DNA of 31,446 nucleotides from a virus (taxonomy: Duplodnaviria; Heunggongvirae; Uroviricota; Caudoviricetes): the IMG/VR virus record IMGVR_UViG_2872698443_000005; one strand, 5' to 3'. Each line of letters opens with the position of its first letter. Within the stretch, counting starts at the first letter, position 1. A model generated the notes under the pieces. The model was given only the letters and a program-made list of their open reading frames with translations, was not told where the DNA came from and searched no databases. The position numbers were made by a program, and so were the translations under genes. Below are positions 2,071 through 31,446 of this stretch, piece by piece.

Positions 2071-2933
2071 AGTATGTCTTTATTGAAAAACATCAGGCTG
2101 AGTTCAGCATCAAAGCAATGTGCCGCGTGCTCCGGGTGGCCCGCAGCGGCTGGTATACGTGGTGTCAGCGGCGGACAAGGATAAGCACGCGTCAGCAGTT
2201 CCGCCAACACTGCGACAGCGTTGTCCTCGCGGCTTTTACCCGGTCAAAACAGCGTTACGGTGCCCCACGCCTGACGGATGAACTGCGTGCTCAGGGTTAC
2301 CCCTTTAACGTAAAAACCGTGGCGGCAAGCCTGCGCCGTCAGGGACTGAGGGCAAAGGCCTCCCGGAAGTTCAGCCCGGTCAGCTACCGCGCACACGGCC
2401 TGCCTGTGTCAGAAAATCTGTTGGAGCAGGATTTTTACGCCAGTGGCCCGAACCAGAAGTGGGCAGGAGACATCACGTACTTACGTACAGATGAAGGCTG
2501 GCTGTATCTGGCAGTGGTCATTGACCTGTGGTCACGTGCCGTTATTGGCTGGTCAATGTCGCCACGCATGACGGCGCAACTGGCCTGCGATGCCCTGCAG
2601 ATGGCGCTGTGGCGGCGTAAGAGGCCCCGGAACGTTATCGTTCACACGGATCGTGGAGGCCAGTACTGTTCAGCAGATTATCAGGCGCAACTGAAGCGGC
2701 ATAATCTGCGTGGAAGTATGAGCGCAAAAGGTTGCTGCTACGATAATGCCTGCGTGGAAAGCTTCTTTCATTCGCTGAAAGTGGAATGTATCCATGGAGA
2801 ACACTTTATCAGCCGGGAAATAATGCGGGCAACGGTGTTTAATTATATCGAATGTGATTACAATCGGTGGCGGCGGCACAGTTGGTGTGGCGGCCTCAGT
2901 CCGGAACAATTTGAAAACCAGAACCTCGCTTAG
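2067..2933 (+). CDS. insF: IS3 OrfB (InsF), DDE transposase catalytic domain
   Basis: 288-aa ORF in the -1 frame relative to orfA; DDE/rve-type integrase core (..HTDRGGQY.., ..[11 protein letters not shown]..). Confidence 0.9.

Positions 2934-4081: not shown

Positions 4082-4085
<4 letters not shown>
3774..4085 (+). CDS. ydfR: Uncharacterised 103-aa protein between holin and endolysin (YdfR-like)
   Basis: ORF with a good RBS (gagaggagag) 5 nt after the holin stop; its stop overlaps the endolysin start (ATGA). No recognisable catalytic motif. Confidence 0.55.
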
Positions 4086-5109
<1,024 letters not shown>

Positions 5110-5370: not shown

Positions 5371-5472
5371 TATTATTTGTACCTCTTGAGATTTCCTTGT
5401 TGGTTTTTCTCTCTGATATTTTTTTTTCGGACCATTCTGCCCAAGGGCTAATTTCTTCAAAAGGTAATAATT

Positions 5473-12469: not shown

Positions 12470-12482
12470 TTCCTGGTTCAGG

Positions 12483-14441
12483 ATGCAGGCTGGTCACCAG
12501 AGTGACGCGGATATTTATATTTATGACGAGATTGGTTTCTGGGGTGTTACAGCGAAGCAGTTTATCAGTGATCTGAATGCACTGGGCGATATCACCCACA
12601 TTAATCTCCATATTAATTCACCGGGTGGCGATGTCTTTGAAGGCATCGCCATTTTTAATGCGCTGAAAACACATGGTGCGTCCATTACGGTTTATGTCGA
12701 CGGTGTGGCGGCGTCAATGGCGTCGGTCATTGCGATGGTGGGAAACCCGGTCATTATGCCGGAAAACACTTTCATGATGATTCATAAACCATTTGGCTTT
12801 ACGGGCGGTGATGCGGAGGACATGCGCACCTATGCCGACCTGCTCGATAAAGTTGAGGCGGTTCTGTTACCCGCTTATGCACAGAAAACCGGGAAAACCA
12901 CCGATGAAATTGCTGCCATGCTGGCGGATGAGACCTGGATGTCCGGTGCCGAATGTCTGGCACATGGATTTGCTGATCAGGTAACGCCAGCCGTTAAGGC
13001 AATGGCATGTATTCAGTCAAAACGTACAGAGGAATTTAAAAAGATGCCGGAATCCATTCGAAACATGATTACTCCGCCACGCAACAGTGCTCCACGCGTA
13101 CAGGATGATGAACCTGCAGCCTCCCGGACGCCAGTGCAGGCAGCAGCACCCGTGGTGGATGAAAACAGTATCCGTGCGCAGGTACTGGCAGAGCAAAAAG
13201 CGCGTGTAAACGGTATTAATGATCTGTTTGCCATGTTTGGCGGGCGTTATCAGACTCTGCAGGCTCAGTGTCTTGCCGATCCTGAATGTTCGCTGGAGCA
13301 GGCCCGCGAAAAGCTGTTGAACGAGATGGGGCGCGAGTCCACGCCATCCAATAAAAATACCCCGGCTCATATTTATGCCGGTAACGGTAATTTTGTGGGG
13401 GACGGGATCCGCCAGGCGCTGATGGCGCGTGCCGGATTTGAAAAAACCGAACGTGATAATGTCTACAACGGGATGACCCTGCGTGAATATGCCCGTATGT
13501 CACTGACTGAACGGGGTATTGGGGTTTCCAGTTATAACCCGATGCAGATGGTCGGTGCGGCGTTCACACACAGTACGTCTGACTTCGGTAATATTCTGCT
13601 GGATGTTGCGAACAAAGCCATTCTGCAGGGCTGGGAAGATGCTCCTGAAACCTATGAACAGTGGACGCGGAAAGGTCAGTTGTCTGATTTTAAAATTGCC
13701 CATCGTGTGGGTATGGGGGGCTTCAGTGCTCTGCGTCAGGTGCGTGAAGGGGCGGAATATAAATACGTCACCACCGGAGATAAACAGGCCACTATTGCAC
13801 TGGCGACCTATGGCGAGCTGTTCAGTATCACCCGTCAGGCCATTATCAATGATGATCTGAATATGCTGACCGATGTCCCGATGAAGCTGGGCCGTGCGGC
13901 GAAATCCACCATTGCCGATCTGGTTTATGCCATTCTGACGTCTAACCCGAAAATCTCCACAGATAATGTAAGTCTGTTCGATAAAGCGAAACATGCAAAC
14001 GTACTGGAGAGCGCTGCAATGGACGTGGCATCGCTGGATAAAGCCCGCCAGTTGATGCGCGTTCAGAAAGAGGGGGAGCGTCATCTGAATATTCGTCCTG
14101 CGTTCGTACTGGTACCGACGGCGATGGAGTCTGTTGCTAACCAGGTCATTCGCTCCTCAAGTGTCAAGGGGGCTGACATTAACGCCGGTATTATTAACCC
14201 GGTGAAAGATTTTGCGACCGTTATTGCAGAGCCTCGTCTTGATGATAACAGCCAGACCACCTTCTACCTGGCTGCGTCCAAAGGCTCCGATACGATTGAA
14301 GTGGCTTATCTCAACGGTGTGGATACGCCATATATTGATCAGATGGAGGGCTTCAGTGTGGATGGCGTGACAACGAAAGTGCGTATTGACGCCGGTGTCG
14401 CGCCAGTTGATCACCGCGGTCTGGTGAAATGTACGGCGTAA
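12483..14441 (+). CDS. Single ORF with ClpP-like prohead protease N-terminus, scaffold-like middle region and HK97-fold major capsid C-terminus
   Basis: 652 aa from the first ATG after the portal stop. N-terminus has ClpP/S14-like motifs (GGDVFEGIAIFNALK, GVAASMASVI, MMIHKP); the middle is Ala/Gln-rich and helical; the C-terminal ~300 aa look like a capsid domain. No stop or frame change between the parts. Confidence 0.75.
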   Translation: MQAGHQSDADIYIYDEIGFWGVTAKQFISDLNALGDITHINLHINSPGGDVFEGIAIFNALKTHGASITVYVDGVAASMASVIAMVGNPVIMPENTFMMIHKPFGFTGGDAEDMRTYADLLDKVEAVLLPAYAQKTGKTTDEIAAMLADETWMSGAECLAHGFADQVTPAVKAMACIQSKRTEEFKKMPESIRNMITPPRNSAPRVQDDEPAASRTPVQAAAPVVDENSIRAQVLAEQKARVNGINDLFAMFGGRYQTLQAQCLADPECSLEQAREKLLNEMGRESTPSNKNTPAHIYAGNGNFVGDGIRQALMARAGFEKTERDNVYNGMTLREYARMSLTERGIGVSSYNPMQMVGAAFTHSTSDFGNILLDVANKAILQGWEDAPETYEQWTRKGQLSDFKIAHRVGMGGFSALRQVREGAEYKYVTTGDKQATIALATYGELFSITRQAIINDDLNMLTDVPMKLGRAAKSTIADLVYAILTSNPKISTDNVSLFDKAKHANVLESAAMDVASLDKARQLMRVQKEGERHLNIRPAFVLVPTAMESVANQVIRSSSVKGADINAGIINPVKDFATVIAEPRLDDNSQTTFYLAASKGSDTIEVAYLNGVDTPYIDQMEGFSVDGVTTKVRIDAGVAPVDHRGLVKCTA

Positions 14442-14464
14442 ACGTCGCAGACAACAACTCTGAT

Positions 14465-14484
14465 GGCCCGTAAGGGCTTTTTTT
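14465..14484 (+). terminator. Possible rho-independent terminator after the capsid gene
   Basis: gccc-gtaa-gggc stem-loop followed by a run of seven T. Confidence 0.4.
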
Positions 14485-14527
14485 GTACCTGAAATCAGCC
14501 TCTGAACGGGGCTGTGCGGAGACAGTT

Positions 14528-14851
14528 ATGGCAAAGAATTTTGTAGAAGAAGGAAAAACGGTGGCGATTGTTGCCAGTGCAGCCATCAGCAGCGGAGATC
14601 TGGTGCAGGTGGGTGATGTTTTTGCGGTGGCGCTGACCGATATTCCACAGGGTGAAACAGGCGACGGCATGACCGAAGGTGTGTTTATCCTGCCTAAACT
14701 GAAAACGGATGACATGAAAACGGGTAAGAAGGTTTATCTGAAGTCCGGAAAAGTTCAGCTGACTAACAGCGGCTCTGATCCGCTGGTCGGGGTTGTCTGG
14801 GCAGATGCCGGAACCAGTGCAGAAGAAGTGCCGGTAAAACTCAATGTCTGA
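14528..14851 (+). CDS. Small head-associated protein (hypothetical), 107 aa
   Basis: ORF with a good RBS (ggaga); located between the capsid gene and the head-completion/tail genes. Confidence 0.5.
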   Translation: MAKNFVEEGKTVAIVASAAISSGDLVQVGDVFAVALTDIPQGETGDGMTEGVFILPKLKTDDMKTGKKVYLKSGKVQLTNSGSDPLVGVVWADAGTSAEEVPVKLNV

Positions 14852-15119
14852 TCCTTTTTCCCGGCTGGCAGCGCGTATGGATGCGATCACGGTCAGAAAG
14901 ATGGGAAAGACAGCCTCGATTAATGATGTCGATATGGCTGTGATCCCGGGCGAAACACTGGCAGAGCTGAATGCTCTGTCCGGACCTGCGGTCTCTCTGG
15001 TGGTGTTTTCTTCGGGATACCGCCCACGGCGCGGGGATCGCGTTGTTTATGACGGACAACAATGGACGGTCACACGGCATGAACGTTTTAACGGTAAGCC
15101 AATGATCTTTATTGAGTAA
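14844..15119 (+). CDS. Head-tail adaptor / head completion protein (hypothetical), 91 aa
   Basis: ORF overlapping the preceding gene by 8 nt; occupies the position of lambda FII. Confidence 0.45.
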   Translation: MSDPFSRLAARMDAITVRKMGKTASINDVDMAVIPGETLAELNALSGPAVSLVVFSSGYRPRRGDRVVYDGQQWTVTRHERFNGKPMIFIE

Positions 15120-15130
15120 AGAGGTGTGGG

Positions 15131-15709
15131 ATGAAGGGGCTTGAGAATGCCATCCGCAATCTGAACAGCCTTGATACCCGTATGGTGCCACAGGCCAGCG
15201 CATGGGCGATAAACCGTGTGGCACAGAAAGCGGTCTCGGTTGCCACCCGGCAGGTTGCCGGGAATACCGTTGCGGGAGATAACCAGGTGAAAGGGATCCC
15301 CCTGAAACTGGTACGTCAGCGTGTCCGGGTGTTTAAAGCCAGTCCGTCAGGAAAAATGACGGCCAGGATCCGCGTTAACCGGGGCAATCTGCCCGCCATT
15401 AAGCTGGGGACAGCCCGGGTCAGACTGGCCCGGCGTGGTGGAAAACTGCAGTACCGTGGCAGTGTGCTGAAGGTGGGTAAATATCTTTTCCGGGATGCGT
15501 TTATTCAGCAACTGGCGAATGGTCGCTGGCATGTGATGCGGCGTATTGATGGCAAAAATCGTTACCCCATTGATGTGGTGAAAATCCCGCTGTCCGGACC
15601 GCTGACACAGGCATTTGAAGATGCCCGCGACCACATCATTGCTGCGGAAATGCCGAAACAGCTGGGGTATGCACTGAAACAACAACTGAGGTTATGGCTG
15701 ACCCGATGA
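15131..15709 (+). CDS. Z: Tail completion protein Z (lambda gpZ homologue)
   Basis: 192 aa; motifs shared with recalled lambda Z (KGLE..A..NL, QQL.NGRWHVM.R..GKNRYPIDVVKIP, KELGYAL.HQLR). Confidence 0.85.
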   Translation: MKGLENAIRNLNSLDTRMVPQASAWAINRVAQKAVSVATRQVAGNTVAGDNQVKGIPLKLVRQRVRVFKASPSGKMTARIRVNRGNLPAIKLGTARVRLARRGGKLQYRGSVLKVGKYLFRDAFIQQLANGRWHVMRRIDGKNRYPIDVVKIPLSGPLTQAFEDARDHIIAAEMPKQLGYALKQQLRLWLTR

Positions 15710-16107
15710 ACCGGCATACACAAATCCGCCAGGCCGTACTGGCACGCCTTCGGGAACAGTGTGGAGACAGCGCCACGTTTTTTGACGGGCTTCCGGCATT
15801 TATTGATGCGCAGGAACTGCCTGCCGTGGCGGTGTGGCTGAGTGATGCTCAGTACACCGGAAAAATGACGGATGAAGATGACTGGCAGGCTGTTCTGCAT
15901 ATTGCCGTCTTCATCCGGGCACAGGCACCGGATTCAGAGCTGGATATGTGGATGGAGAGCACCATTTTCCCTGCCCTGAATGATATACCGGCACTTTCCG
16001 GACTCATCGACACCCTGATCCCACTCGGTTTTAACTATCAACGTGATAATGAGATGGCCACCTGGACGATGGCGGAAATCACGTACCAGATCACGTACAC
16101 GAATTAA
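15706..16107 (+). CDS. U: Tail terminator protein U (lambda gpU homologue)
   Basis: 133 aa; ATG overlaps the Z stop (ATGA); shares GATFFDG.PA..D....PAVAV.L......TG and PDSELD.WMES with recalled lambda U. Confidence 0.85.
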   Translation: MNRHTQIRQAVLARLREQCGDSATFFDGLPAFIDAQELPAVAVWLSDAQYTGKMTDEDDWQAVLHIAVFIRAQAPDSELDMWMESTIFPALNDIPALSGLIDTLIPLGFNYQRDNEMATWTMAEITYQITYTN

Positions 16108-16117
16108 GGAGGTGGTA

Positions 16118-16861
16118 ATGACCACACCAAATCCACTGGCAAAGACGAAAGGTGCGGGGACGACGTTCTGGATGTATACCGGCAACGGCGATGCGTTTGC
16201 GAACCCTTTGTCGGACACTGACTGGCTGCGTCTTGCGATGGTGAAGGATCTGCAACCTGGCGAAATGACCGCTGATGCAGAAGATGACACTTATCTCGAT
16301 GATGAAGATGCAGACTGGAAAACGACAACCCAGGGGCAGAAATCCGTTGGTGATACTTCGGCGACGCTGGCCTGGCGTCCGGGTGACAGCGGGCAGAAAA
16401 AACTGGTTCAGTTGTTCGACTCCGGTGAAGTCTGCGCGTTTCGTATCAAATATCCCAACGGCACTGTTGATGTTTTCCGTGGCTGGCTGAGCTCACTGGG
16501 TAAAACCATTGCCTCAAAAGACGTGATGACCCGCACTGTGAAAATCAGCGGTGTGGGGCGTCCGTATCTGGCAGAGGAAGGCACTGAAACCGTGAGCGTT
16601 ACCGGGCTGACAGTATCACCGGCGTCTGCCAGTGTAAAAGTGGGAGCAACCACCACGCTGACCTTTACAGTAAAACCTGACGGAGCCAGTGACAAAGCGA
16701 TCAGTGTGCATTCGTCAGATCCACAGACTGCCACGGTTACCCTGAACGGACTTGTGGCCACGGTAAAAGGCGTGAAGCAGGGCAGTGTCAGCATTGTGGG
16801 CATGACCGCTGACGGGAATTTTGTGGCTGTGACTGCGGTGACTGTCAGCGCAGCAGGTTAA
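16118..16861 (+). CDS. V: Major tail tube protein V (lambda gpV homologue) with C-terminal Ig-like domain
   Basis: 247 aa; strong RBS aaggaggtgg; N-terminal ..KGAGTT.W.Y.G.GD..ANPLSD.DW.RLA.VKDL.PGE.TA.. matches recalled lambda V. Confidence 0.9.
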   Translation: MTTPNPLAKTKGAGTTFWMYTGNGDAFANPLSDTDWLRLAMVKDLQPGEMTADAEDDTYLDDEDADWKTTTQGQKSVGDTSATLAWRPGDSGQKKLVQLFDSGEVCAFRIKYPNGTVDVFRGWLSSLGKTIASKDVMTRTVKISGVGRPYLAEEGTETVSVTGLTVSPASASVKVGATTTLTFTVKPDGASDKAISVHSSDPQTATVTLNGLVATVKGVKQGSVSIVGMTADGNFVAVTAVTVSAAG

Positions 16862-16882
16862 CAGGACGATACTCATCATTTG

Positions 16883-16905
16883 CCCCGGTTATGCGGGGCT
16901 TTTTT
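16883..16905 (+). terminator. Hairpin plus T-run after the major tail gene (possible partial terminator)
   Basis: ccccg-gttatg-cgggg stem followed by cttttttg, between V and G. Confidence 0.4.
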
Positions 16906-16921
16906 GCAGGTGGAGAACATG

Positions 16922-17308
16922 ATGTTTCTGAAACAGGACACGTTTAATTATGAAAAACAGTCCGTGGTGCTCAGTGAGCTGTCCGGGCTGCAGAGAATTG
17001 AATATCTGACGTTTGTTCAGCAGCGAACGGCAAAGTTTGATGCCGGGGAGGGAGAACTGCCGGAGGCTGAACGACAGATTGCTTTTCTGCGGATGGGGAT
17101 GGATATCAATGCCTGGCTGGTTTCCCGCTCACTGTGGAATGCGGATCAGTCTAAGGATGTAGAGACGCTTTGCGCATCCGTTATTACAACATGGTCGTAT
17201 GATGCCCTGGGTGCGGGGGCGGAGATGGTTCTGTCGCTGAGCGGTATGGGGGCCATTGATAATGCCGTGGATGATGAGCATGAGGCGCTGACGCCGGAAA
17301 AGTCCTGA
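16922..17308 (+). CDS. G: Tail assembly chaperone G (lambda gpG homologue)
   Basis: MFLKQDTFNYEKQSVVLSELSGLQRIEYL...AEMVLSLSGMGAIDNA... resembles recalled lambda G; RBS ggtggaga. Confidence 0.85.
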   Translation: MFLKQDTFNYEKQSVVLSELSGLQRIEYLTFVQQRTAKFDAGEGELPEAERQIAFLRMGMDINAWLVSRSLWNADQSKDVETLCASVITTWSYDALGAGAEMVLSLSGMGAIDNAVDDEHEALTPEKS

Positions 17309-17646
17309 CGCGGGAAATGCAGTTTGTCATGCGGCTTGCCCGGGAGTTCCGGCGGGCAGACTGGCGGCGGATGCTGTCGGAAATGTCGGCCACTGAGCTT
17401 GGTGAGTGGGGCGATTATTTCCGGATGCAGAGCTTCAGTGATGTGTGGATGGATGCGCAGTTTGCCTCGCTGAAGGCATTGATCGTGAGAATGGTGTCCG
17501 GCAGCAGTGATGCTGCGGTGGCTGATTTCAGCCTTTTACCGGAAGAGAACGGGATACCGGAGCGAACGGACGAAGAACTGATGCATCTTGGGGAAGGTAT
17601 TTCCGGAGGTGTGCGTTATGGACCAGATAGCCAACCTGGTCATTGA
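17284..17646 (+). CDS. T: T reading frame, predicted to be expressed only as a G-T fusion by a -1 ribosomal frameshift near the 3' end of G
   Basis: The -1 frame opens at 17284 and the G stop is at 17306-17308, so the slip must occur within about 22 nt. That window contains GGAAAAG (17296-17302), at the position of lambda's GGGAAAG slip site. Confidence 0.7.
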   Translation, partial: GADAGKVLTREMQFVMRLAREFRRADWRRMLSEMSATELGEWGDYFRMQSFSDVWMDAQFASLKALIVRMVSGSSDAAVADFSLLPEENGIPERTDEELMHLGEGISGGVRYGPDSQPGH

Positions 17647-20600
17647 TTTGGGGATTGATGCGGCAGAGTTTAAAAATGAAATTCCCCGTATCAAAAACCT
17701 TCTGAATGGTGCAGCCAGCGATGCAGAACGGTCTTCTGCCCGTATGCAGCGTTTTATGGAGCGTCAGACTCAGGCCGCCCGGCAGACAACGCAGGCAGCT
17801 TCTTCGGCTGCAACAGCCGCATCCGTCCATGCGCAGACGGTGGAGAAGAACGCACAGGCTCATGAACGCATGGCCCGCGAGGTGGAGAAAACCCGCCAGC
17901 GCATGGAGGCACTGAGCCAGAAAATGCGCGAGGAACAGGCGCAGGCCATGGCTCTGGCGGAGGCTCAGGATAAAGCGGCTGCTGCGTTTTATCGTCAGAT
18001 TGACAGTGTGAAACAGGCCAGTGCGGGGCTGCAGGAATTACAGCGTATTCAGCAGCAGATCCGACAGGCCAGAAACAGTGGCGGGATTGGTCAGCAGGAT
18101 TATCTGGCGCTGATTTCTGAGGTTACGGCGAAAACCCGTGTTCTTACGCAGGCTGAGGAAGAGGCTACCCGACAGAAAGTGGCGTTTATCCGTCAGCTTA
18201 AAGAGCAGGCAACCCGCCAGAATCTTTCTTCTTCTGAGTTGCTTCGTGCTAAGGCTGCCCAGCTGGGGGTAAGCAGTGCTGCAGAAGTGTATATCCGCAA
18301 AATGGAGCAGGCAGGAAAAGCCACGCATTCGCTGGGTCTGAAAAGTGCAGCGGCCCGCCAGGAGATAGGCGTTCTGATAGGTGAACTGGCCCGCGGCAAT
18401 TTAGGGGCGCTGAGGGGATCCGGGATAACGCTGGCTAACCGTGCCGGATGGATAGACACTCTGATGTCACCGAAAGGCATGATGCTTGGCGGGGTTATTG
18501 GCGGTATTGCCGCGTCCGTCTATGGTCTGGGTAAAGCCTGGTATGACGGTCAGAAGGAGGGGGAAGAATTTAACCGCCAGTTGTCGCTGACGGGGCATTA
18601 TGCCGGAGTCACTGCCGGGCAGCTGTGGACGCTCAGTCGTGCTATTTCCGGGAATGGTATCACGCAACATGCTGCAGCCGGTGTGCTGGCTCAGGTGGTG
18701 GGGAGTGGTGCATTTCGTGGAAACGATATCGGTATGGTGGCGAGAGCTGCCGCACAGATGGAGCGATCGGTTGGCCAGTCGGTCAGCGATACCATAAATC
18801 AGTTTAAGCGGCTGAAGGATGATCCTGTAAATGCCGCGAAGGCTCTGGACAATGAGCTGCATTTTCTTACTGCCACTCAGCTTGAGCAGATACGTGTCCT
18901 TGGGGATCAGGGACGGTCCAGTGATGCTGCACGGATAGCCATGTCTGCACTGGCAGAGGAAACCGATCGGCGTACTGCGGATATTGATAATAACCTCAAT
19001 GCGCTTGGCAGTACGCTGAAGTATCTGTCTGATTTGTGGAGTCGTTTCTGGGATGCGGCCATGAATATTGGTCGTGAAGACTCGCTGGATGAACAGATTG
19101 CCGCTTTACAGGAGAAAGTGTCGCGGGCGAAAAGACTCCCCTGGACGGCATCATCTTCTCAGGTTGAATACGATCAGCAGCGTCTTAACGATCTTCAGGA
19201 GAAAAAACGCCAGAAGGATTTGCAGGATGCAAAAGAGCAGGCAGAGCGGAATTATCAGGAGCAACAGAAACGACGTAATGCTGAAAATGCTGCACTGAAC
19301 CGGATGAATGAAACGGAAGCAGCACGACATCAGCGTGAAATTGCGCGTATTAATTCCATGCAGTACGCCGATCAGGCTGTCAGGGATGCAGCGATACAAC
19401 GTGAAAATGAACGTTACGAGAAAGCCCTGGCATCCGGTAAGAAAAAAACACGCGAAACCCGTAATGATGAGGCCACCCGGTTATTGCTGCAGTACAGTCA
19501 GCAACAGGCACAGGTGGAAGGACAGATTGCTGTTGCAAGACAGTCAGCAGGCATTGCCACTGAAAAGATGACAGAAGCGCATAAACAGCTTCTGGCTCTG
19601 CAGCAGCGCATCAGCGATCTGGACGGGAAAAAACTGACGGCAGATGAAAAGAGTGTGCTGGCCCGTAAAGATGAACTGATTCAGGCACTGACGCTGCTGG
19701 ATGTAAAACAGCAGGAGCTTCAGAAACAGACGGCACTCAACGATCTGAAGAAAAAAACAATTCAGCTGACCAGTCAACTGGCTGAAGAAGAGCTCGCTCA
19801 GCGTCAGCAACATGACCTGGATATCGCCACGGTGGGTATGGGTGATCAGCAGCGGCAGCGATATCAGGTACAACTGAGTCTTCGCCAGAAATACCAGCAA
19901 CAGCTGGAGCAGTTGAGGCGGGATAGTGAGCAGAAAGGGACATATAACACGGATGACTACAGAAAGGCCGAGCAGGCGCTGACGGAGAGCCTGAACCGAC
20001 AACTGAATGAGAATCGCCGTTACTGGCAACAGCTTGAAGTTGTGCAGGGTAACTGGAAAAACGGAGTCCTGCGTGCATTTCAGGATTTTACCGTGGATGC
20101 AGACAATACGGCAGGAACAGCAGAACAGGTGTTCTCGTCAGCCTTCAGCAACATGGGAAATGGCCTGGCAACTTTTGTCACTACCGGCAAACTCAACTTC
20201 AAATCCTTCACCTCTTCGGTGCTGTCAGATATGGCGAAAATCCTGGCGCAGGCAACCATGATGAAATCGATAAAAGGGATTGGCAGTGTACTGGGATTTG
20301 ATCTCAGCAGCCTTTCCCTGAATGCCAATGGGGGGATTTATCAGTCTGCTGATTTGAGTCGTTACAGTGGCACGGTGGTTAACCGTCCGACGTTTTTTGC
20401 TTTTGCAAAAGGCGCGGGTGTGATGGGGGAAGCGGGACCTGAAGCCATTCTGCCATTGCGTCGTGGTGCTGACGGTAAGCTGGGGGTTGTGGCGGATATT
20501 GGGGGTTCAGGTATGGCGATGTTTTCCCCGCAGTACAACATCGAGATCAATAACGATGGCACGAACGGGCAGATAGGTCCGGCTGCCCTGAAGGCGGTTT

Positions 20601-20683
20601 ATGACCTCGGGAAAAAAGCGGCAGCGGACTTTATGCAACAGCAGGCCCGTGATGGTGGTCGGTTAAGTGGAGCATATCGGTAA
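17618..20683 (+). CDS. H: Tail tape measure protein H (lambda gpH homologue), 1021 aa
   Basis: Long coiled-coil-rich ORF; C-terminal ..INNDGTNGQIGPAALKAVYD..RDGG matches the recalled lambda H C-terminus; RBS ggagg. Confidence 0.9.
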   Translation: MDQIANLVIDLGIDAAEFKNEIPRIKNLLNGAASDAERSSARMQRFMERQTQAARQTTQAASSAATAASVHAQTVEKNAQAHERMAREVEKTRQRMEALSQKMREEQAQAMALAEAQDKAAAAFYRQIDSVKQASAGLQELQRIQQQIRQARNSGGIGQQDYLALISEVTAKTRVLTQAEEEATRQKVAFIRQLKEQATRQNLSSSELLRAKAAQLGVSSAAEVYIRKMEQAGKATHSLGLKSAAARQEIGVLIGELARGNLGALRGSGITLANRAGWIDTLMSPKGMMLGGVIGGIAASVYGLGKAWYDGQKEGEEFNRQLSLTGHYAGVTAGQLWTLSRAISGNGITQHAAAGVLAQVVGSGAFRGNDIGMVARAAAQMERSVGQSVSDTINQFKRLKDDPVNAAKALDNELHFLTATQLEQIRVLGDQGRSSDAARIAMSALAEETDRRTADIDNNLNALGSTLKYLSDLWSRFWDAAMNIGREDSLDEQIAALQEKVSRAKRLPWTASSSQVEYDQQRLNDLQEKKRQKDLQDAKEQAERNYQEQQKRRNAENAALNRMNETEAARHQREIARINSMQYADQAVRDAAIQRENERYEKALASGKKKTRETRNDEATRLLLQYSQQQAQVEGQIAVARQSAGIATEKMTEAHKQLLALQQRISDLDGKKLTADEKSVLARKDELIQALTLLDVKQQELQKQTALNDLKKKTIQLTSQLAEEELAQRQQHDLDIATVGMGDQQRQRYQVQLSLRQKYQQQLEQLRRDSEQKGTYNTDDYRKAEQALTESLNRQLNENRRYWQQLEVVQGNWKNGVLRAFQDFTVDADNTAGTAEQVFSSAFSNMGNGLATFVTTGKLNFKSFTSSVLSDMAKILAQATMMKSIKGIGSVLGFDLSSLSLNANGGIYQSADLSRYSGTVVNRPTFFAFAKGAGVMGEAGPEAILPLRRGADGKLGVVADIGGSGMAMFSPQYNIEINNDGTNGQIGPAALKAVYDLGKKAAADFMQQQARDGGRLSGAYR

Positions 20684-21012
20684 TGGAGACGTTTCACTGG
20701 AAAGTGCGCCCGGATATGAATGTGGTATCAGAGCCGAAAGTGGTGACAGTGAAGCTGGGCGATGGTTATGAACAGCGTCGTGCGGCGGGACTGAATAACC
20801 AGTTGTCGACTTACAGCGTGACGATACGTGTTCGTAAATGTGAACACCCATCTTTAAAAGCCTTTCTGGAACGGCACGGTGGCGTCCGTGCATTTCAGTG
20901 GACGCCACCTTATGACTGGAAACCGATCAGGGTGGTTTGTCGTAAATGGTCGGCAAGCGTGGGGGCGCTGTGGGTAACCATAACGGCAGATTTTGAACAG
21001 GTCGTGGCATAG
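20683..21012 (+). CDS. M: Minor tail protein M (lambda gpM homologue)
   Basis: 109 aa; start overlaps the H stop (TAATG). Confidence 0.9.
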   Translation: METFHWKVRPDMNVVSEPKVVTVKLGDGYEQRRAAGLNNQLSTYSVTIRVRKCEHPSLKAFLERHGGVRAFQWTPPYDWKPIRVVCRKWSASVGALWVTITADFEQVVA

Positions 21013-21021
21013 GAGGCTCTG

Positions 21022-21720
21022 ATGCAGGATATTCCACAGGAAACACATCATGAGACGACACGCCTCACTCAGTCAGCCCAGGTGGTGCTATGGGAAATCG
21101 ATCTGACAGAGGTCGGTGGTGAACGTTATTTTTTCTGTAATGAGCAGAACGAAAAAGGTGAGCCGGTTATCTGGCAGGGGCGGCAGTATCAGGTATACCC
21201 CATTCAGGGGACGGGATTTGAACTGAACGGCAAGGGCAGTGCTGCCCGTCCGACACTGACGGTTTCTAACCTGCACGGCATGGTCACCGGGATGGCGGAA
21301 GACCTGCAGAGTCTGGTCGGAGGAACGGTGGTCCGGCGTAAGGTTTACGCCCGTTTTCTGGATGCGGTGAACTTCGTCAACGGAAACAGTGACGCCGATC
21401 CGGAGCAGGAGGTGATCAGCCGCTGGCGCATCGAGCAGTGCAGCGAACTGAGCGCGGTGAGTGCCTCTTTTGTACTGTCCACGCCGACGGAAACGGACGG
21501 TGCTGTTTTTCCGGGACGTATCATGCTGGCCAACACCTGCACCTGGACCTATCGCGGTGATGAGTGCGGTTATCACGGTCCGGCAGTCGCGGATGAATAT
21601 GACCAGCCAACGTCCGATATCACGAAGGATAAATGCAGCAAATGCCTGAGCGGTTGTAAGTTCCGCAATAACGTCGGCAACTTTGGCGGCTTCCTTTCCA
21701 TTAACAAACTTTCGCAGTAA
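21022..21720 (+). CDS. L: Minor tail protein L (lambda gpL homologue)
   Basis: 232 aa; RBS aggagg; conserved C-terminal Cys cluster (..CSKCLSGCKF..). Confidence 0.9.
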   Translation: MQDIPQETHHETTRLTQSAQVVLWEIDLTEVGGERYFFCNEQNEKGEPVIWQGRQYQVYPIQGTGFELNGKGSAARPTLTVSNLHGMVTGMAEDLQSLVGGTVVRRKVYARFLDAVNFVNGNSDADPEQEVISRWRIEQCSELSAVSASFVLSTPTETDGAVFPGRIMLANTCTWTYRGDECGYHGPAVADEYDQPTSDITKDKCSKCLSGCKFRNNVGNFGGFLSINKLSQ

Positions 21721-21725
21721 ATCCC

Positions 21726-22468
21726 ATGACACAGACAGAATCAGCGATTCTGGCGCACGCCCGGCGATGTGCGCCAGCGGAGTCGTGCGGCTTCGTGGTG
21801 AGAGCGCCGGAGGGGAAAGATATTTTCCCGGCGTGAATATTTCCGGTGAGCCGGAGGATTATTTCCGGATGGCTCCGGAGGACTGGCTGCAGGCAGAAAT
21901 GCAGGGTGAGATTGTGGCGCTGGTCCACAGCCACCCCGGTGGTCTGCCCTGGCTGAGTGAGGCTGACCGGCGGCTGCAGGTGCAGAGTGATTTGCCGTGG
22001 TGGCTGGTCTGCCGGGGGGCGATTCATAAGTTCCGCTGTGTGCCGCATCTCACCGGGCGGCGCTTTGAGCACGGGGTGACGGACTGTTACACGCTGTTCC
22101 GGGATGCTTATCATCTGGCGGGGATTGAGATGCCGGATTTTCATCGCGAGGATGACTGGTGGCGTCACGGTCAGAATCTCTATCTGGATAATCTGGAGGC
22201 CACAGGGCTGTATCAGGTGCCGTTGTCAGCGGCGCAGCCGGGCGATGTGCTGCTGTGCTGTTTTGGTTCATCGGTGCCGAATCATGCCGCCATTTACTGT
22301 GGTGACGGTGAGCTGCTGCACCATATTCCTGAACAACTGAGTAAACGAGAGAGGTACACCGACAAATGGCAGCGACGCACACACTCCCTCTGGCGTCACC
22401 GGGAATGGCACGCATCTGCCTTTACGGGGATTTACAACGATTTGGCCGCCGCATCGACCTTCGTGTGA
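21726..22468 (+). pseudogene. K: Tail protein K (lambda gpK homologue; JAB/MPN and NlpC/P60-like motifs), reading frame broken near 21812-21815
   Basis: The ATG at 21726 encodes MTQTESAILAHARRCAPAESCGFVV... and stops at 21834-21836 after 36 codons. The rest (..GERYFPGVNISGEPE...HSHPGG...DCYTLF...) continues in the -1 frame to 22468. The switch lies at a GGGG run (21812-21815) and is consistent with one missing G. Confidence 0.85.
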
Positions 22469-23013
22469 AAACGGGGGCTGAAGCCATCCGCGCACTGGCC
22501 ACACAGCTCCCGGCGTTTCGTCAGAAACTGAGCGACGGCTGGTATCAGGTACGGATTGCCGGGCGTGATGCAGGTGAAACCGAATTGTCTGCCCGTCTTA
22601 ATGAGCCGCTGGCAAATGGTGCCGTGATCCACATCGTGCCGCGTCTGGCGGGAGCTAAAAGTGGCGGTGTGTTTCAGGTGGTGCTGGGGGCGGCGCTGAT
22701 TGCGGTGGCATGGTGGAACCCTGTGGGCTGGCTGGGTGCCGCGGCTGTATCGGGCATGTATGCGGCAGGGGCCAGTATGATCCTAGGCGGAGTGGCGCAG
22801 ATGCTGGCACCGAAAGCCAGGACGCCCACGGCAGCAAGTACAGATAACGGCAAACAGAACACCTATTTCTCCTCACTGGATAACATGGTTGCCCAGGGCA
22901 ATGTTCTGCCTGTTCTGTACGGGGAAATGCGCGTGGGGTCACGCGTGGTTTCTCAGGAGATCAGCACGGCAGACGAAGGGGACGGTGGTCAGGTTGTGGT
23001 GATTGGTCGCTGA
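22366..23013 (+). CDS. I: Tail assembly protein I (lambda gpI homologue)
   Basis: 215 aa; N-terminus MAATHTLPLASPGMARICLYGDLQRFGRRIDLRVKTGAEAIRALATQLPAF as recalled for lambda I; overlaps the K 3' end. Confidence 0.9.
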   Translation: MAATHTLPLASPGMARICLYGDLQRFGRRIDLRVKTGAEAIRALATQLPAFRQKLSDGWYQVRIAGRDAGETELSARLNEPLANGAVIHIVPRLAGAKSGGVFQVVLGAALIAVAWWNPVGWLGAAAVSGMYAAGASMILGGVAQMLAPKARTPTAASTDNGKQNTYFSSLDNMVAQGNVLPVLYGEMRVGSRVVSQEISTADEGDGGQVVVIGR

Positions 23014-23073
23014 TGCAAAATGTTTTATGTGAAACCGCCTGCGGGCGGTTTTGTCATTTATGGAGCGTGAGGA

Positions 23074-26000
23074 ATGGGTAAAGGAAGCAGTAAGGGGCAT
23101 ACCCCGCGCGAAGCGAAGGACAACCTGAAGTCCACGCAGTTGCTGAGTGTGATCGATGCCATCAGCGAAGGGCCGGTTGAAGGTCCGGTGGATGGATTAA
23201 AAAGCGTGCTGCTGAACAGTACGCCGGTGCTGGACAGTGAGGGGAATACCAACATCTCCGGCGTCACGGTGGTGTTCCGGGCAGGTGAGCAGGAGCAGAC
23301 ACCGCCGGAAGGTTTTGAATCCTCCGGCTCCGAGACTGTGCTGGGTACGGAAGTGAAATATGACACGCCGATCACCCGCACCATCACGTCGGCAAACATC
23401 GACCGTCTGCGCTTTACCTTCGGTGTGCAGGCACTGGTGGAAACCACCTCAAAGGGTGACCGGAATCCGTCGGAAGTCCGCCTGCTGGTTCAGATACAAC
23501 GTAACGGTGGCTGGGTGACGGAAAAAGATATCACCATTAAGGGCAAAACCACCTCGCAGTATCTGGCCTCGGTGGTGGTGGATAACCTGCCGCCGCGCCC
23601 GTTTAATATCCGGATGCGCAGAATGACGCCGGACAGCACCACAGACCAGCTGCAGAACAAAACGCTCTGGTCGTCATACACCGAAATCATCGATGTGAAA
23701 CAGTGCTACCCGAACACGGCACTGGTCGGCGTGCAGGTGGATTCGGAGCAGTTCGGCAGCCAGCAGGTGAGCCGTAATTATCATCTTCGCGGGCGCATTC
23801 TGCAGGTGCCGTCGAATTATAACCCGCAGACGCGGCAATACAGCGGTATCTGGGACGGAACGTTAAAACCGGCATACAGCAACAACATGGCCTGGTGTCT
23901 GTGGGATATGCTGACCCACCCGCGCTACGGCATGGGGAAACGTCTTGGTGCGGCAGATGTGGATAAATGGGCGCTGTATGTCATCGGCCAGAATTGCGAC
24001 CAGTCGGTGCCGGACGGCTTTGGCGGTACGGAGCCGCGCATCACCTGTAACGCTTACCTGACCACACAACGTAAGGCGTGGGATGTGCTCAGTGATTTCT
24101 GCTCGGCGATGCGCTGTATGCCGGTATGGAACGGGCAGACGCTGACGTTCGTGCAGGACCGACCGTCGGATAAGGTGTGGACCTATAACCGCAGTAATGT
24201 GGTGATGCCGGATGATGGCGCGCCGTTCCGCTACAGCTTCAGCGCCCTGAAAGACCGCCATAATGCCGTTGAGGTGAACTGGATTGACCCGGATAACGGC
24301 TGGGAGACGGCAACAGAGCTTGTGGAGGACTCGCAGGCCATTGCCCGTTACGGTCGTAATGTCACGAAGATGGATGCCTTTGGCTGTACCAGCCGGGGCA
24401 GGCACACCGCGCCGGGCTGTGGCTGATTAAAACGGAGCTGCTGGAAACGCAGACGGTGGACTTCAGCGTGGGTGCCGAAGGGCTTCGCCATGTGCCGGGC
24501 GATGTCATTGAAATCTGTGATGATGACTATGCCGGTATCAGCACCGGCGGGCGCGTGCTGGCGGTAAACAGCCAGACCCGGACGCTGACGCTCGACCGTG
24601 AAATCACGCTGCCATCCTCCGGTACCACGCTGATAAGCCTGGTTGACGGAAGTGGCAATCCGGTCAGCGTGGAGGTTCAGTCCGTCACCGACGGCGTGAA
24701 GGTAAAAGTGAGCCGTGTTCCTGACGGCGTTGCCGGATACAGCGTGTGGGGGCTGAAGTTGCCGACGTTGCGCCAGCGCCTGTTCCGCTGTGTGAGTATC
24801 CGTGAGAACAATGACGGCACGTATGCCATCACCGCCGTGCAGCATGTACCGGAAAAAGAAGCCATCGTGGATAACGGGGCGCACTTTGACGGCGACCAGA
24901 GCGGCACGGTGAATGGTGTCACGCCGCCAGCGGTGCAGCACCTGACCGCCGAAGTCACCGCAGACAGTGGGGAGTATCAGGTACTGGCCCGCTGGGACAC
25001 GCCGAAGGTGGTGAAGGGCGTGAGCTTCCTGCTCCGTCTGACCGTAACAGCGGATGACGGCAGTGAGCGGCTGGTCAGCACGGCCCGGACGACGGAAACC
25101 ACATACCGCTTCAGGCAGCTGGCGCTGGGGCGTTACATGCTGACGGTCCGGGCGGTAAATGCGTGGGGACAGCAGGGCGATCCGGCGTCGGTATCGTTCC
25201 GGATTGCCGCACCGGAAGCACCGTCGAGGATTGAGCTGACGCCGGGCTATTTTCAGATAACCGCCACGCCGCATCTTGCCGTTTATGACCCGACGGTACA
25301 GTTTGAGTTCTGGTTCTCGGAAAAGCGGATTACCGATATCAGGCAGGTTGAAACCACAGCCCGCTATCTTGGTACGGCGCTGTACTGGATAGCCGCCAGT
25401 ATCAATATCAAACCGGGCCATGATTATTACTTTTATATCCGCAGTGTGAACACCGTTGGCAAATCGGCATTCGTGGAGACCGTCGGTCGGGCGAGCGATA
25501 ATGCGGAAGGTTACCTGGATTTTTTCAAAGGCAAGATAACCGAATCCCATCTCGGCAAGGAGCTGCTGGAAAAAGTCGAGCTGACGGAGGATAACGCCAG
25601 CAAACTGGAGGAGTTTTCGAAAGAGTGGCAGGACGCTAACGATAAGTGGAATGCCATGTGGGGCGTCAAAATTGAGCAGACCAAAGACGGCAAACATTAT
25701 GTCGCGGGTATTGGCCTCAGCATGGAGGACACGGAGGAAGGCAAACTGAGTCAGTTTCTGGTTGCCGCTAACCGTATCGCATTTATTGACCCGGCAAACG
25801 GGAATGAAACGCCGATGTTTGTGGCGCAGGGCAATCAGATATTCATGAACGACGTGTTCCTGAAGCGCCTGACGGCCCCCACCATTACCAGCGGTGGCAG
25901 TCCTCCGGTATTTTCCCTGACATCAGACGGAAAGCTGACCGCTAAAAATGCGGATATCAGTGGCAGTGTGAATGCGAACGCCGGGACGCTCAACAATGTC

Positions 26001-26486
26001 ACGGTAAATGAAAACTGTACGATTAAGGGCATGCTGGAGGCGACTCAGGTCAGAGGTGACTTCGTTAAAGCTGTATCCAAATCATTTCCGAAACAGGCTG
26101 GTACGTGGGGTAACACGGAAACACCAAACGGGACGGTTACAGTCACCATCAGCGATGATCATAACTTTGACCGTCAAATCATTATTCCGCCCATTATCTT
26201 TAACGGAATAGCGTATAGCGATCCGGGAAGTGGTAATAACCCGGGAGGTACAAGATACACGGGTTATGGTTTTGAAGTTCGCAAAAACGGTGTATTAATC
26301 GCATCCAGAGAAACTAAAGGGGCCATTCCCGGTAGCTACAGTGCGGTTATTGATATGCCGAGTGGCAGGGGAAGCGTCACTCTGGAGTTTAAGGTTTTCC
26401 ATAAAGGCAATCAGTGGGCAGGTAATATCACCGACTGTACGGTGATTGTGACCAAAAAAGCCGCTTCCGGCATCAGTATTCGTTGA
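23074..26486 (+). pseudogene. J: Central tail fibre / host-specificity protein J (lambda gpJ homologue), reading frame broken near 24395-24398
   Basis: Two consecutive ORFs (23074-24426 and 24456-26486) together cover a J-like protein of about 1130 aa. The first stops at 24424-24426; the -1 frame carries on with ..[25 protein letters not shown]... The switch is at a GGGG run (24395-24398), consistent with one missing G. Confidence 0.9.
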
Positions 26487-26506
26487 AATTGTTATAACCC
26501 ATATAA

Positions 26507-26532
26507 GGGCACCAGAAATGGTGCCTTTTTTA
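26507..26532 (+). terminator. Rho-independent terminator after J
   Basis: ggcacc-agaaat-ggtgcc hairpin followed by ttttttat. Confidence 0.6.
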
Positions 26533-26555
26533 TTGCAGAAAAGCGAGAGGTAATT

Positions 26556-27155
26556 ATGCGTAAACTTTATGCCGCCATTTTGTCCGCAGCCATTTGTCTG
26601 GCCGTATCCGGTGCGCCTGCATGGGCGTCTGAACATCAGTCCACGCTGAGCGCGGGGTATCTTCATGCCCGGACGAACGTTCCCGGCAGTGATGATCTGA
26701 ACGGGATTAACGTGAAATACCGTTATGAGTTTACGGACACACTGGGGCTGGTGACGTCATTCAGCTATGCAGGAGACAAGAATCGCCAGCTTACCCGTTA
26801 CAGCGATACCCGCTGGCATGAAGATTCCGTGCGTAACCGCTGGTTCAGCGTGATGGTGGGGCCGTCTGTGCGCGTGAATGAATGGTTCAGCGCGTATGCG
26901 ATGGCGGGTATGGCTTACAGCCGTGTGTCGACTTTCTCCGGGGATTATCTCCGCGTAACTGACAACAAGGGGAAAACGCACGACGTGCTGACCGGAAGTG
27001 ATGACGGTCGCCACAGCAACACGTCTCTGGCGTGGGGAGCTGGCGTGCAGTTTAACCCGACCGAATCCGTGGTCATTGATATTGCTTATGAAGGCTCCGG
27101 CAGTGGCGACTGGCGCACTGACGGTTTCATCGTGGGTGTCGGTTATAAGTTCTGA
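26556..27155 (+). CDS. lom: Lom, outer-membrane beta-barrel protein (Ail/Lom family)
   Basis: 199 aa; signal peptide [24 protein letters not shown]; ..[12 protein letters not shown]... and the C-terminal ..[25 protein letters not shown] match recalled lambda Lom. Confidence 0.9.
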
Positions 27156-27182
27156 TTAGCCAGGTAACACAGTGTTATGACA

Positions 27183-27208
27183 GCCCGCCGGTTCAGGCGG
27201 GCTTTTTT
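27183..27208 (+). terminator. Rho-independent terminator after lom
   Basis: gcccgcc-ggttca-ggcgggc hairpin followed by a run of six T. Confidence 0.65.
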
Positions 27209-27219
27209 GTGGGGTGAAT

Positions 27220-30183
27220 ATGGCAGTAAAGATTTCAGGTGTACTGAAAGACGGCACAGGAAAACCGGTACAGAACTGCACAATCCAGCTGAAAGCAAAA
27301 CGTAACAGCACCAGGGTGGTGGTGAACACGCTGGCCTCAGAAAATCCGGATGAAGCCGGGCGTTACAGCATGGACGTTGAGTACGGGCAGTACAGCGTTA
27401 TTCTGTTGGTGGAGGGATTCCCGCCGTCACATGCCGGGACCATCACCGTGTATGAAGATTCTCAACCCGGTACGCTGAATGATTTTCTCGGTGCCATGAC
27501 GGAGGATGATGCCCGTCCGGAGGCATTGCGACGTTTTGAACTGATGGTGGAAGAGGTGGCGCGTAACGCGTCCGCAGTGGCACAGAACACGGCAGCCGCG
27601 AAGAAGTCAGCCAGTGATGCCAGCACATCTGCCAGTGAGGCGGCAACCCATGCGACTGATGCTGCAGATTCAGCACGTGCAGCCAGCACGTCAGCCGGAC
27701 AGGCCGCGACGTCGGCTCAGGAGGCTTTTTCCAGCGCAGGAACGGCATCAGCAAAAGCCTCTGAGGCATCAAAAAGTGCTGCCGCTGCAGAGTCCTCAAA
27801 AAGCGCGGCGGCCACCAATGCCGGTGCGGCGAAAACGTCAGAAACGAATGCGGCAGCGTCACAACAATCAGCAGCCACTTCTGCATCCACCGCGACCACG
27901 AAAGCGTCAGAAGCAGCCACTTCAGCACGGGATGCGTCGGCTTCAAAAGAGGCGGCAAAATCATCAGAAACGAACGCAGCCTCGAGCGCCAGCAGCGCAG
28001 CTTCCTCGGCAACGGCGGCAGGAAATTCCGCGAAGGCGGCAAAAACGTCCGAGACGAACGCTAAGTCTTCTGAAACGGCAGCGGAACAGAGTGCCTCCGC
28101 AGCAGCAGACTCAAAAACAGCGGCTGCGTCGTCTGCCAGTGCAGCGTCAACAAGTGCGGGGCAGGCCTCAGCCAGTGCTAGCGCCGCCGGAAAATCGGCA
28201 GAAAGCGCTGCATCGTCCGCTTCAATAGCCACAACGAAGGCTGGCGAAGCCGCGGAACAGGCCAGCGCAGCAGCGAGGTCTGCATCCGCAGCGAAGACAT
28301 CCGAAACGAACGCGAAAGCGTCGGAAACCAGCGCAGAATCCTCAAAAACGGCTGCCGCATCGTCAGCCAGTTCGGCGGCGTCATCGGCATCATCGGCGTC
28401 TGCTTCAAAAGATGAGGCGACCAGACAGGCGTCAGCAGCGAAGGGCAGCGCCACGACGGCATCCACGAAGGCGACAGAGGCAGCTGGCAGTGCGACGGCG
28501 GCAGCTCAGAGCAAAAGTACGGCGGAGTCCGCGGCAACGCGCGCCGAGACAGCAGCAAAACGGGCAGAGGATATTGCATCCGCCGTGGCGCTTGAGGATG
28601 CGAGCACGACGAAAAAGGGGATAGTACAGCTCAGCAGTGCGACTAACAGCACTTCCGAGTCACTGGCGGCAACGCCAAAAGCCGTTAAGGCCGCGTATGA
28701 GCTGGCTAACGGGAAATACACCGCACAGGATGCAACGACAGCACAGAAAGGGATAGTTCAGCTCAGCAGCGCGACCAACAGCACATCTGAAATGCTGGCG
28801 GCAACGCCAAAGTCGGTAAAGGCAGCCTATGACCTTGCTAACGGGAAATATACTGCTCAGGACGCTACGACAGCACAAAAAGGAATTGTCCAGCTCAGTA
28901 GTGCAACCAACAGCGCATCTGAAACGCTTGCCGCGACACCGAAAGCAGTGAAAGCAGCTAATGATAATGCGAATGGTCGGGTACCTTCTGCCCGTAAGGT
29001 GAATGGTAAGGCGCTTTCAGCGGATATAACACTGACGCCGAAAGATATTGGTACGCTTAACTCAACAACAATGTCATTCAGCGGTGGTGCTGGTTGGTTC
29101 AAATTAGCAACGGTAACCATGCCACAGGCGAGTTCTGTTGTTTCAATTACGTTGATTGGTGGCGCGGGATTTAACGTGGGGTCACCTCAACAGGCAGGTA
29201 TATCTGAACTTGTTTTGCGTGCAGGTAATGGTAATCCGAAGGGGATTACTGGTGCTTTATGGCAGCGCACATCGACAGGGTTTACAAATTTTGCCTGGGT
29301 CAATACATCTGGTGATACTTACGATATTTACGTTGCAATCGGAAATTATGCGACTGGTGTAAATATTCAATGGGATTATACCAGTAATGCCAGCGTGACG
29401 ATTCATACGTCACCAGCATATTCTGCTAATAAGCCGGAAGGGTTAACGGACGGTACAGTTTATTCACTCTATACGCCATCAGAGCAGTTTTATCCGCCTG
29501 GCGCACCAATCCCGTGGCCATCAGATACCGTTCCGTCTGGCTATGCCCTGATGCAGGGGCAGACTTTTGACAAATCTGCATACCCGAAACTTGCAGCCGC
29601 TTATCCGTCAGGCGTGATCCCTGATATGCGTGGCTGGACGATTAAGGGCAAACCCGCCAGTGGTCGTGCCGTATTGTCTCAGGAACAGGACGGCATTAAA
29701 TCGCACACCCACAGCGCCAGCGCATCCAGTACGGATTTGGGGACGAAAAACACATCGTCGTTTGATTACGGAACCAAATCCACGAATAACACCGGGGCGC
29801 ATACCCATAGTATTAGCGGGACTGCAAATAGTGCCGGTGCGCACCAACACAAGAGTTCCGGTGCATTTGGTGGCACGAACACGAGCATTTTCCCTAATGG
29901 TTATACCGCGATTTCAAATCTAAGCGCGGGGATTATGAGCACAACAAGCGGTAGTGGCCAGACTCGTAATGCAGGGAAGACATCATCAGATGGTGCTCAT
30001 ACCCACTCGCTGTCCGGCACTGCTGCAAGCGCAGGCGCACATGCACATACTGTCGGTATTGGTGCTCATACGCACTCCGTTGCGATTGGTTCACATGGAC
30101 ACACCATCACCGTTAACGCTGCTGGTAACGCGGAAAACACCGTCAAAAACATCGCATTTAACTATATTGTGAGGCTTGCATAA
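27220..30183 (+). CDS. stf: Side tail fibre protein Stf
   Basis: 988 aa from ATG 27220 (track ORF starts 6 nt earlier at GTG). N-terminus [26 protein letters not shown]... and C-terminus ...[35 protein letters not shown] match recalled lambda Stf. Long Ala/Ser/Thr-rich low-complexity segment (about 27590-28570) and tandem repeats in the middle. Confidence 0.9.
28615..28965 (+). repeat. About 2.7 tandem copies of a 132-bp (44-codon) coding repeat inside stf
   Basis: Repeats encode [15 protein letters not shown](S/M)LAATPK(A/S)VKAAY(E/D)[15 protein letters not shown], starting at 28615, 28747 and 28879 (third copy diverges). Confidence 0.75.
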
Positions 30184-30758
30184 TGGCATTCAGAATGAGT
30201 GAACAACCACAGACCATAAAAATTTATAATCTGCTGGCCGGAACTAATGAATTTATTGGTGAAGGTGACGCATATATTCCGCCTCATACAGGTCTGCCAG
30301 CAAACAGTACCGATATTGCACCGCCAGATATTCCGGCAGGCTTCGTGGCTGTTTTCAACAGTGATGAGGCATCGTGGCATCTCGTTGAAGATCATCGGGG
30401 AAAAACCGTCTATGACGTGGCTTCCGGCGACGCGTTATTTATTTCTGAACTCGGTCCGTTACCGGAAAATGTTACCTGGTTATCGCCGGAAGGGGAGTTT
30501 CAGAAGTGGAACGGCACAGCCTGGGTGAAGGATACGGAAGCAGAAAAACTGTTCCGGATCCGGGAGGCGGAAGAAACAAAAAACAACCTGATGCAGGTAG
30601 CCAGTGAGCATATTGCGCCGTTTCAGGATGCTGCAGATCTGGAAATTGCAACGGAGGAAGAAATCTCGTTGCTGGAAGCATGGAAAAAGTATCGGGTATT
30701 GCTGAACCGTGTTGATACGTCAACTGCACAGGATATTGAATGGCCAGCACTGCCGTAG
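30183..30758 (+). CDS. tfa: Tail fibre assembly protein Tfa
   Basis: 191 aa; start overlaps the stf stop (TAATG); lies immediately downstream of stf as in lambda. Confidence 0.85.
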
Positions 30759-30855
30759 GGTAAAACATATAAATTCTATAATTAGATGTATCTTTCCATT
30801 TACGGCAAGGAAGGGGGCTTGGAACACGTAAAGCATCTCACACCGAGATTATTTT

Positions 30856-31446
30856 TTATATGTCAGGTGTCTGAAGTTTTGCTTTGGCTCTTAAAATGGT
30901 TTGCCGCGAGGTTTTGAATTCCCGGGCAATGGCACTTATACTTACACCTGACTTAATTCGTTCGAATACCACCTGTTTCTGTTCTTCATTTAACACAGGT
31001 GGTCGACCAAAACGTTTCCCTGCGCCGCGGGCTCTTACTATCCCGGAATGAGTGCGTTCAAGTAAAAGGTCTCGTTCAAATTCAGCGACTGCTGAAATTA
31101 CTTGCATCATCATTTTTCCTGTTGGACTGGTCAGGTCAATGCCACCCAATGCTAAGCAATGCACTCTGATACCTGTTTCTGTCAGTTGTTCCACTGTTTT
31201 CCTGATATCCATTGCATTACAACCAAGGCGATCCAGTTTTGTCACAATCAATTGATCACCACATTTCAGGCGAGCAAGCAACCGGTTAAAACCAGGACGC
31301 TCACTGGTTGCTGCTGAGCCGCTAATGTGTTCTTCGATTATTTGCTGAGGTTTGATTTTAAAACCTGCACTTTCGATTTCCCGGCGTTGATTTTCGGTGG
31401 TCTGATCCAGCGTTGATATCCGACAGTAAGCAAAAATTCGAGACAT
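30856..31446 (-). CDS. Serine recombinase (resolvase/invertase family); start codon coincides with the window end
   Basis: Minus-strand 196-aa [18 protein letters not shown]... with the catalytic-serine motif (YxRxS near the N-terminus), a KLDRLGC motif and a C-terminal helix-turn-helix ([19 protein letters not shown]). Convergent with tfa. The N-terminus is not the MLIGYVRVST type recalled for Pin/Gin/Hin invertases. Confidence 0.8.

Follow-up and report, generated by a model that had tools for sequence, protein, structure and literature searches.

The host-specificity gene J in the stretch of DNA analysed here (31,446 nt, hereafter the window) is a plain loss-of-function frameshift pseudogene and not a case of recoding. 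Its frame is broken at a run of G that has four letters instead of five, and sequence comparison identifies the shortened run as a derived lesion, not as an alternative common allele. Whether it arose by very recent mutational decay or as an error of the consensus sequence, the lesion is ordinary; it brings no mechanistic novelty, frameshifted J pseudogenes being already routinely annotated. Its biological weight is small, since the prophage carrying it was unable to produce particles before J was broken. The value of the analysis lies rather in curation: the J break of GenBank record CP029687.1 should not yet be taken for a naturally occurring variant of J, nor for a host-range gene in two parts, and the break of the same kind in the neighbouring gene K seems to mark a real lineage of this Qin-type prophage. 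To the first-pass annotation of the window, the present work adds the source record, the derived status of the J lesion relative to thousands of homologues, and the distinction between a K lesion that is corroborated and a J lesion that is private.

The interrupted J gene

J occupies two consecutive open reading frames (ORFs) on the plus strand, with the lengths of 450 and 676 amino acids given by the first-pass annotation. The first (ORF1, 23074..24426) starts with ATG and comprises 450 codons, of which 442 encode native J residues and the last eight are frameshifted; the second (ORF2, 24456..26486) starts from a GTG corresponding to V462 of the intact protein. The frame changes at a run of four G (24395..24398, plus strand, equivalent to positions 2315141-2315144 of CP029687.1), lying exactly where it had been reported, in ccGGGGcagg, and all close relatives have five G at this place. 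The missing G falls in the codons of R441-G442 (CGG GGG). Across the break the window reads ACC AGC CGG GGC AGG, then CAC ACC GCG CCG GGC and finally TGT GGC TGA, and ORF1 thus ends with the out-of-frame tail RHTAPGCG, eight residues before the premature TGA of the shifted frame (24424..24426, plus strand), also recognised previously as the end of this ORF. The 442 native residues of ORF1 are identical to WP_097479626.1, the J protein of E. coli DETEC-P61, and once a G is added after 24398 the gene encodes a protein of 1137 aa that matches the same reference exactly, in agreement with the continuous J of about 1130 residues that had been anticipated. With its reading frame interrupted beyond residue 442, J is a pseudogene in CP029687.1.

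The identity of the gene is supported by both its domains and its neighbours. Six Pfam families are found in the restored protein (FNIII-A_GpJ, Phage-tail_3, Ig_J, Ig_J_second, Phage_Tail_Tip and Ig_GpJ_C), all scoring far above their cut-offs. The comparison with lambda J, which had been proposed as a check, gives an end-to-end alignment, residues 1-1136 of the restored protein aligning with residues 1-1131 of lambda J (8iyk_J) at 2280 bits. Lambda gpJ (1132 aa; PDB 8IYK/8K35/8XCG) shares the same Pfam series and has an identical sequence around the position of the break (16 residues); it differs from the J of the window by its uninterrupted frame, broken here after residue 442, and by the extreme C-terminal receptor-binding part, which has diverged in the window. 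The gene order L-K-I-J-lom-stf of lambda is also kept. The synteny context is given by three intact genes of the plus strand: L (minor tail protein, 21022..21720), I (tail assembly protein, 22465..23013) and lom (Ail/Lom outer membrane protein, 26556..27155).

Read from the J start, this sequence leaves its frame, acquires eight wrong residues and terminates, and the product is a 450-aa fragment that ends partway through Phage-tail_3, the domain of residues 330-498 within which the break at R441/G442 is located. The receptor-binding C-terminal two thirds of J are left devoid of a start signal of their own, and no Shine-Dalgarno sequence was found in the 20 nt upstream of the GTG at 24456.

A 449-aa ORF was also observed on the minus strand (24348-25697), wholly inside J; no relative annotates a feature there and it is probably a by-product of the codon composition of J.

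Rarity of the four-G run and the hypotheses of a functional J

The window corresponds to positions 2290747-2322192 of CP029687.1 (assembly GCA_003443795.1, 4,696,142 bp). Window positions 11869-31446 and the corresponding locus of the record are 100% identical across 19,578 nt, both four-G runs (in K and in J) included, and the left flank of the window likewise belongs to CP029687.1, window position 1 being position 2290747 of the record. Zero proteins are annotated between I and lom in this record, so J was treated there as a pseudogene. The collection of RefSeq complete genomes does not include it (NZ_CP029687.1 is absent).

In the RefSeq complete genomes of E. coli, the 43-mer containing five G was found at 6,953 places in 3,989 genomes. 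The 42-mer containing four G was found at six places in RefSeq complete genomes (approximately 0.09%), all of them in other J backgrounds. Fourteen further loci of the prophage family also have five G in J. The four-G 42-mer had no match in INPHARED phages, IMG/VR, GTDB representative genomes or JGI metagenomes, and neither the 450-aa product nor the plausible products of ORF2 were found among 15 billion proteins or 153 billion gene positions.

J is annotated as “frameshifted” in the three RefSeq four-G records inspected among the six. These J pseudogenes (RM14723, RM8082 and p13TMH22-2) resemble that of the window by the same-site change from five to four G and by their PGAP annotation, and differ from it by their J backgrounds and by the prophages that carry them; each of the RefSeq cases is therefore an event, or an error, of its own. 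Frameshifts in adjacent tail genes also occur in at least two of the six records, p13TMH22-2 (L, K, I and J) and RM8082 (I and J). As a control, another run of five G in J (24748-24752) was considered, for which an artificial four-G 42-mer was found in one genome (only the four-G form was counted), indicating that sporadic loss of a G at such runs occurs elsewhere too.

This distribution bears on the possibility that the two ORFs are jointly functional through programmed recoding, a -1 ribosomal frameshift or a transcriptional slippage at the G run rebuilding the full-length protein. The geometry of the locus would be suitable: ORF2 is in the -1 frame, which is open from 24360, native coding restarts directly after the G run, and the stretch 24360-24423 is free of stops in both frames, so that a shift anywhere in this interval would yield a near-native protein. 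Against it, the overlap (24360-24426) contains no X XXY YYZ slippery heptamer, the predicted downstream fold is unremarkable (MFE of -31 kcal/mol, z = -1.31, with 19 of 200 shuffled sequences as stable), and the two-ORF state is not conserved, as shown by the six copies against 6,953, by the single ORF of all close relatives and by the pseudogene annotation of the three inspected RefSeq copies. A run of four G is also much shorter than known transcriptional slippage tracts. A programmed frameshift at J is thus effectively refuted, and we give recoding in any form practically no chance of being correct.

A second hypothesis would make J either a functional split gene, with two polypeptides that assemble, or a phase-variable gene switched ON and OFF by the length of its G run. 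Both forms could draw on the independent loss of a G at the same site in six other genomes and on the lesion of the same type in K, and both are contradicted by the position of the break inside the Phage-tail_3 domain and by a prophage deprived of everything needed to use a tail. For the split gene, ORF2 would start at V462 without Shine-Dalgarno sequence and residues 443-461 would be missing; independent translation from the GTG at 24456 as part of a functional split was rejected on this ground and on the mid-domain location of the break. For phase variation, the frequency of the four-G form is about one copy in a thousand, and the tract has 5 nt in the relatives and 4 nt in the window. Contingency loci have long tracts, usually at least 7 nt, with both lengths common in populations, and classical phase variation needs more than a tract of 4-5 nt. 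We consider this second hypothesis exceedingly improbable.

Two other interrupted or shortened J regions were encountered during the comparisons. In phage PhiR63_1 (PV340573.1, 501-3912), J is annotated as two overlapping CDS, but the split is at about residue 660, an unrelated site, and this candidate was discarded; its J has 3412 nt instead of 3414. In GCA_026135715.1, which belongs to the same prophage family, no J protein is called and the J region is 17 nt shorter, its first 2956 nt alone aligning, with 95.9% identity.

The defective Qin-type prophage

The window represents a cryptic E. coli prophage of the Qin type, the early region of which was replaced by IS1 and IS3. It lies between rspB and ydfK/pinQ, carries the Qin cargo, and its integrase and immunity region are absent. 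The layout was taken from the RefSeq annotation of loci that match the window everywhere except at the two deleted G. It starts with a truncated rspB, IS1 and IS3, followed by ynfU, essD, ydfR, rrrQ, rzpQ, cspI, ynfN and gnsB, then by a head module resembling that of mEp460, a tail module resembling that of lambda, and finally tfaQ and pinQ. According to the same annotation, no integrase, immunity or replication gene is left in the prophage. Compared with Qin (Kim) of E. coli K-12, it occupies the same chromosomal site, from rspB to ydfK/pinQ, and in its near-identical RefSeq relatives bears the same gene names (essD, ydfR, rrrQ, rzpQ, cspI, ynfN, gnsB, tfaQ and pinQ); it differs by retaining a complete head and tail module, mEp460-like and lambda-like respectively. 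In the Qin of K-12 the head and tail module has been lost.

Several of the degradations are common to the relatives. The lysozyme gene rrrQ (4082-4615) has an internal stop, leaving a 140-aa ORF that ends at 4504. In the large terminase gene, a run of seven A at 10674-10680, near the 3' end, corresponds to a run of six in phage mEp460_ev081; the frame shifts about 24 codons before the end, giving a 687-aa ORF instead of 700 aa. The seven-A run is present in the four near-identical relatives and the gene is annotated as “frameshifted” in RefSeq. The missing integrase, immunity and replication genes and this shared terminase frameshift indicate that the prophage was defective before the lesions of K and J. 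With its early region replaced, the lysozyme and terminase genes damaged and K frameshifted, it could already not make phage, and the break in J is without further consequence.

At the left end of the window (1-2933), the truncated rspB, a Zn-dependent oxidoreductase gene, adjoins IS1 and IS3 at the place where the integrase and early region of a lambdoid prophage are expected, and the replacement by these elements looks like the step at which the prophage became grounded.

Contrasted status of the K and J lesions

The closest relative of the window is the prophage of E. coli DETEC-P61 (NZ_CP116152.1), which over all 31,446 nt shows no substitution and exactly two 1-nt gaps, corresponding to the change from five to four G in K (21812-21815) and in J (24395-24398). 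The first-pass annotation was therefore right to describe the lesions of K and J as alike. TUM9754, S163-2 and 19SZHZ886Rt differ from the window at 3, 2 and 6 mismatched positions, respectively. Both G deletions are derived, because these four near-identical prophages all have five G at both sites.

Other relatives separate the two lesions. K, a C40 peptidase tail-tip assembly gene (21726..22468, plus strand), is frameshifted after about codon 29 and its 5' ORF stops after 36 codons. Its run of four G (21812..21815, plus strand) has five G in most relatives, and is found with four G also in the Logan contig SRR23044203_643 and in RefSeq strain ET201. The former, of 7,204 nt, matches window positions 20527-27729 at every base, K deletion included, except that it has five G in J. 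In ET201, K is annotated as “frameshifted” and the J gene is unbroken but of divergent sequence. The K deletion was thus seen in three independent assemblies (CP029687.1, SRR23044203 and ET201). Its independent presence in the last two makes it probably real, and it probably represents an inherited polymorphism of a sub-lineage of the Qin-type prophage. The J deletion, in this prophage, was found in CP029687.1 only, both companions of the K lesion having an intact J. With K seen in three assemblies and J in one record, the two lesions are unequal in evidential status.

ET201 presents two further particularities: a second G-run deletion in K, from six to five G, at the equivalent of window position 22014, and a mosaic, divergent sequence from window position 22464 onward (98.4% identity over the entire 12-kb alignment), which suggests, from the alignment, recombination within I and J.

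The private character of the J lesion raises the question of whether it exists in the DNA of the strain. We lean, by a small measure, towards a consensus undercall in assembly GCA_003443795.1, because the lesion is private, the closest relative sharing the K lesion has five G, the change is a deletion in a 5-nt G run, and the record is absent from the RefSeq complete set. In long-read assemblies, homopolymers of 4-5 nt are where deletion errors are most frequent (PMC12007338). The frameshifts in adjacent tail genes of p13TMH22-2 and RM8082, two of the RefSeq records with four G in J, also point towards an artefact. The J lesion resembles such errors in removing a single base from a 5-nt run, in breaking a gene and in being confined to one assembly; it departs from them in that no other was seen in 42.5 kb and that other assemblies support the sister lesion of K.

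The alternative, a genuine and very recent slipped-strand deletion in the strain, J having drifted neutrally after the K frameshift, is a serious contender to which we give somewhat less than an even chance. Real decay is to be expected in a dead prophage, which puts J under no purifying selection, and this prophage was already defective, with IS1 and IS3 at its left end, the internal stop of rrrQ and the shared terminase frameshift. The three independent assemblies with four G in K further indicate that real G-run deletions occur in this lineage, and K being the other lesion of this type in CP029687.1, its corroboration also speaks against an undercall. Indel rates moreover climb exponentially with the length of homopolymer runs (PMC8510543). 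On the other hand, most point mutations are not indels, which even in mismatch-repair-defective E. coli represent 5,324 of 35,385, against 30,061 substitutions (PMC8510543).

The surroundings of J argue in both directions. They were compared over 42.5 kb, comprising the window, 10 kb upstream and 1.1 kb downstream in CP029687.1, and apart from the two G deletions the record departs from the relatives at a single SNP. Two real indels for one SNP in such a length would be unusual: if the J mutation were genuine, another rare indel would have arisen 2.6 kb away from that of K, on a branch with one SNP in 42.5 kb. The J deletion is in addition private to CP029687.1, with five G in the nearest relative having the K lesion, and the record is missing from the RefSeq complete set. 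Conversely, the assembly is locally clean and not visibly error-prone. No further indel was found in the core genes of the 10 kb upstream, in the 1.1 kb downstream or in the rest of the window, these flanks being too short to fix the error rate of the assembly. The homopolymers remaining in the window include 21 runs of five G, four of six G, three of five C, 63 of five A and 17 of six A, plus runs of seven and eight A and of nine T; the window equals DETEC-P61 at all 153 remaining runs of at least 5 nt, the eight A and nine T included, and the long A and T runs match the relatives, the nine T agreeing with three of the four.

The repeated loss of G in the two genes could also be read as the product of selection, or of a mutation process specific to G runs, silencing the tail-tip genes of cryptic lambdoid prophages, in place of neutral decay or sequencing error. 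Such a reading would build on the four-G run of K in three assemblies, the additional deletion from six to five G in the K of ET201, and the four-G run of J in the window and in six other genomes; we regard it as very unlikely.

Three minor differences complete the comparison of the near-identical prophages. TUM9754 has an extra 1-nt gap within a small complex change at window positions 4339-4341, in rrrQ. At 5410-5418, the run of nine T of the window and three relatives has ten T in S163-2, which is the sole other difference in homopolymer length among the five near-identical prophages. The private SNP of CP029687.1, the only substitution within the 42.5 kb, is located at position 2289468, upstream of the window between ynfA and rspA, where the record has a G and five relatives have an A.
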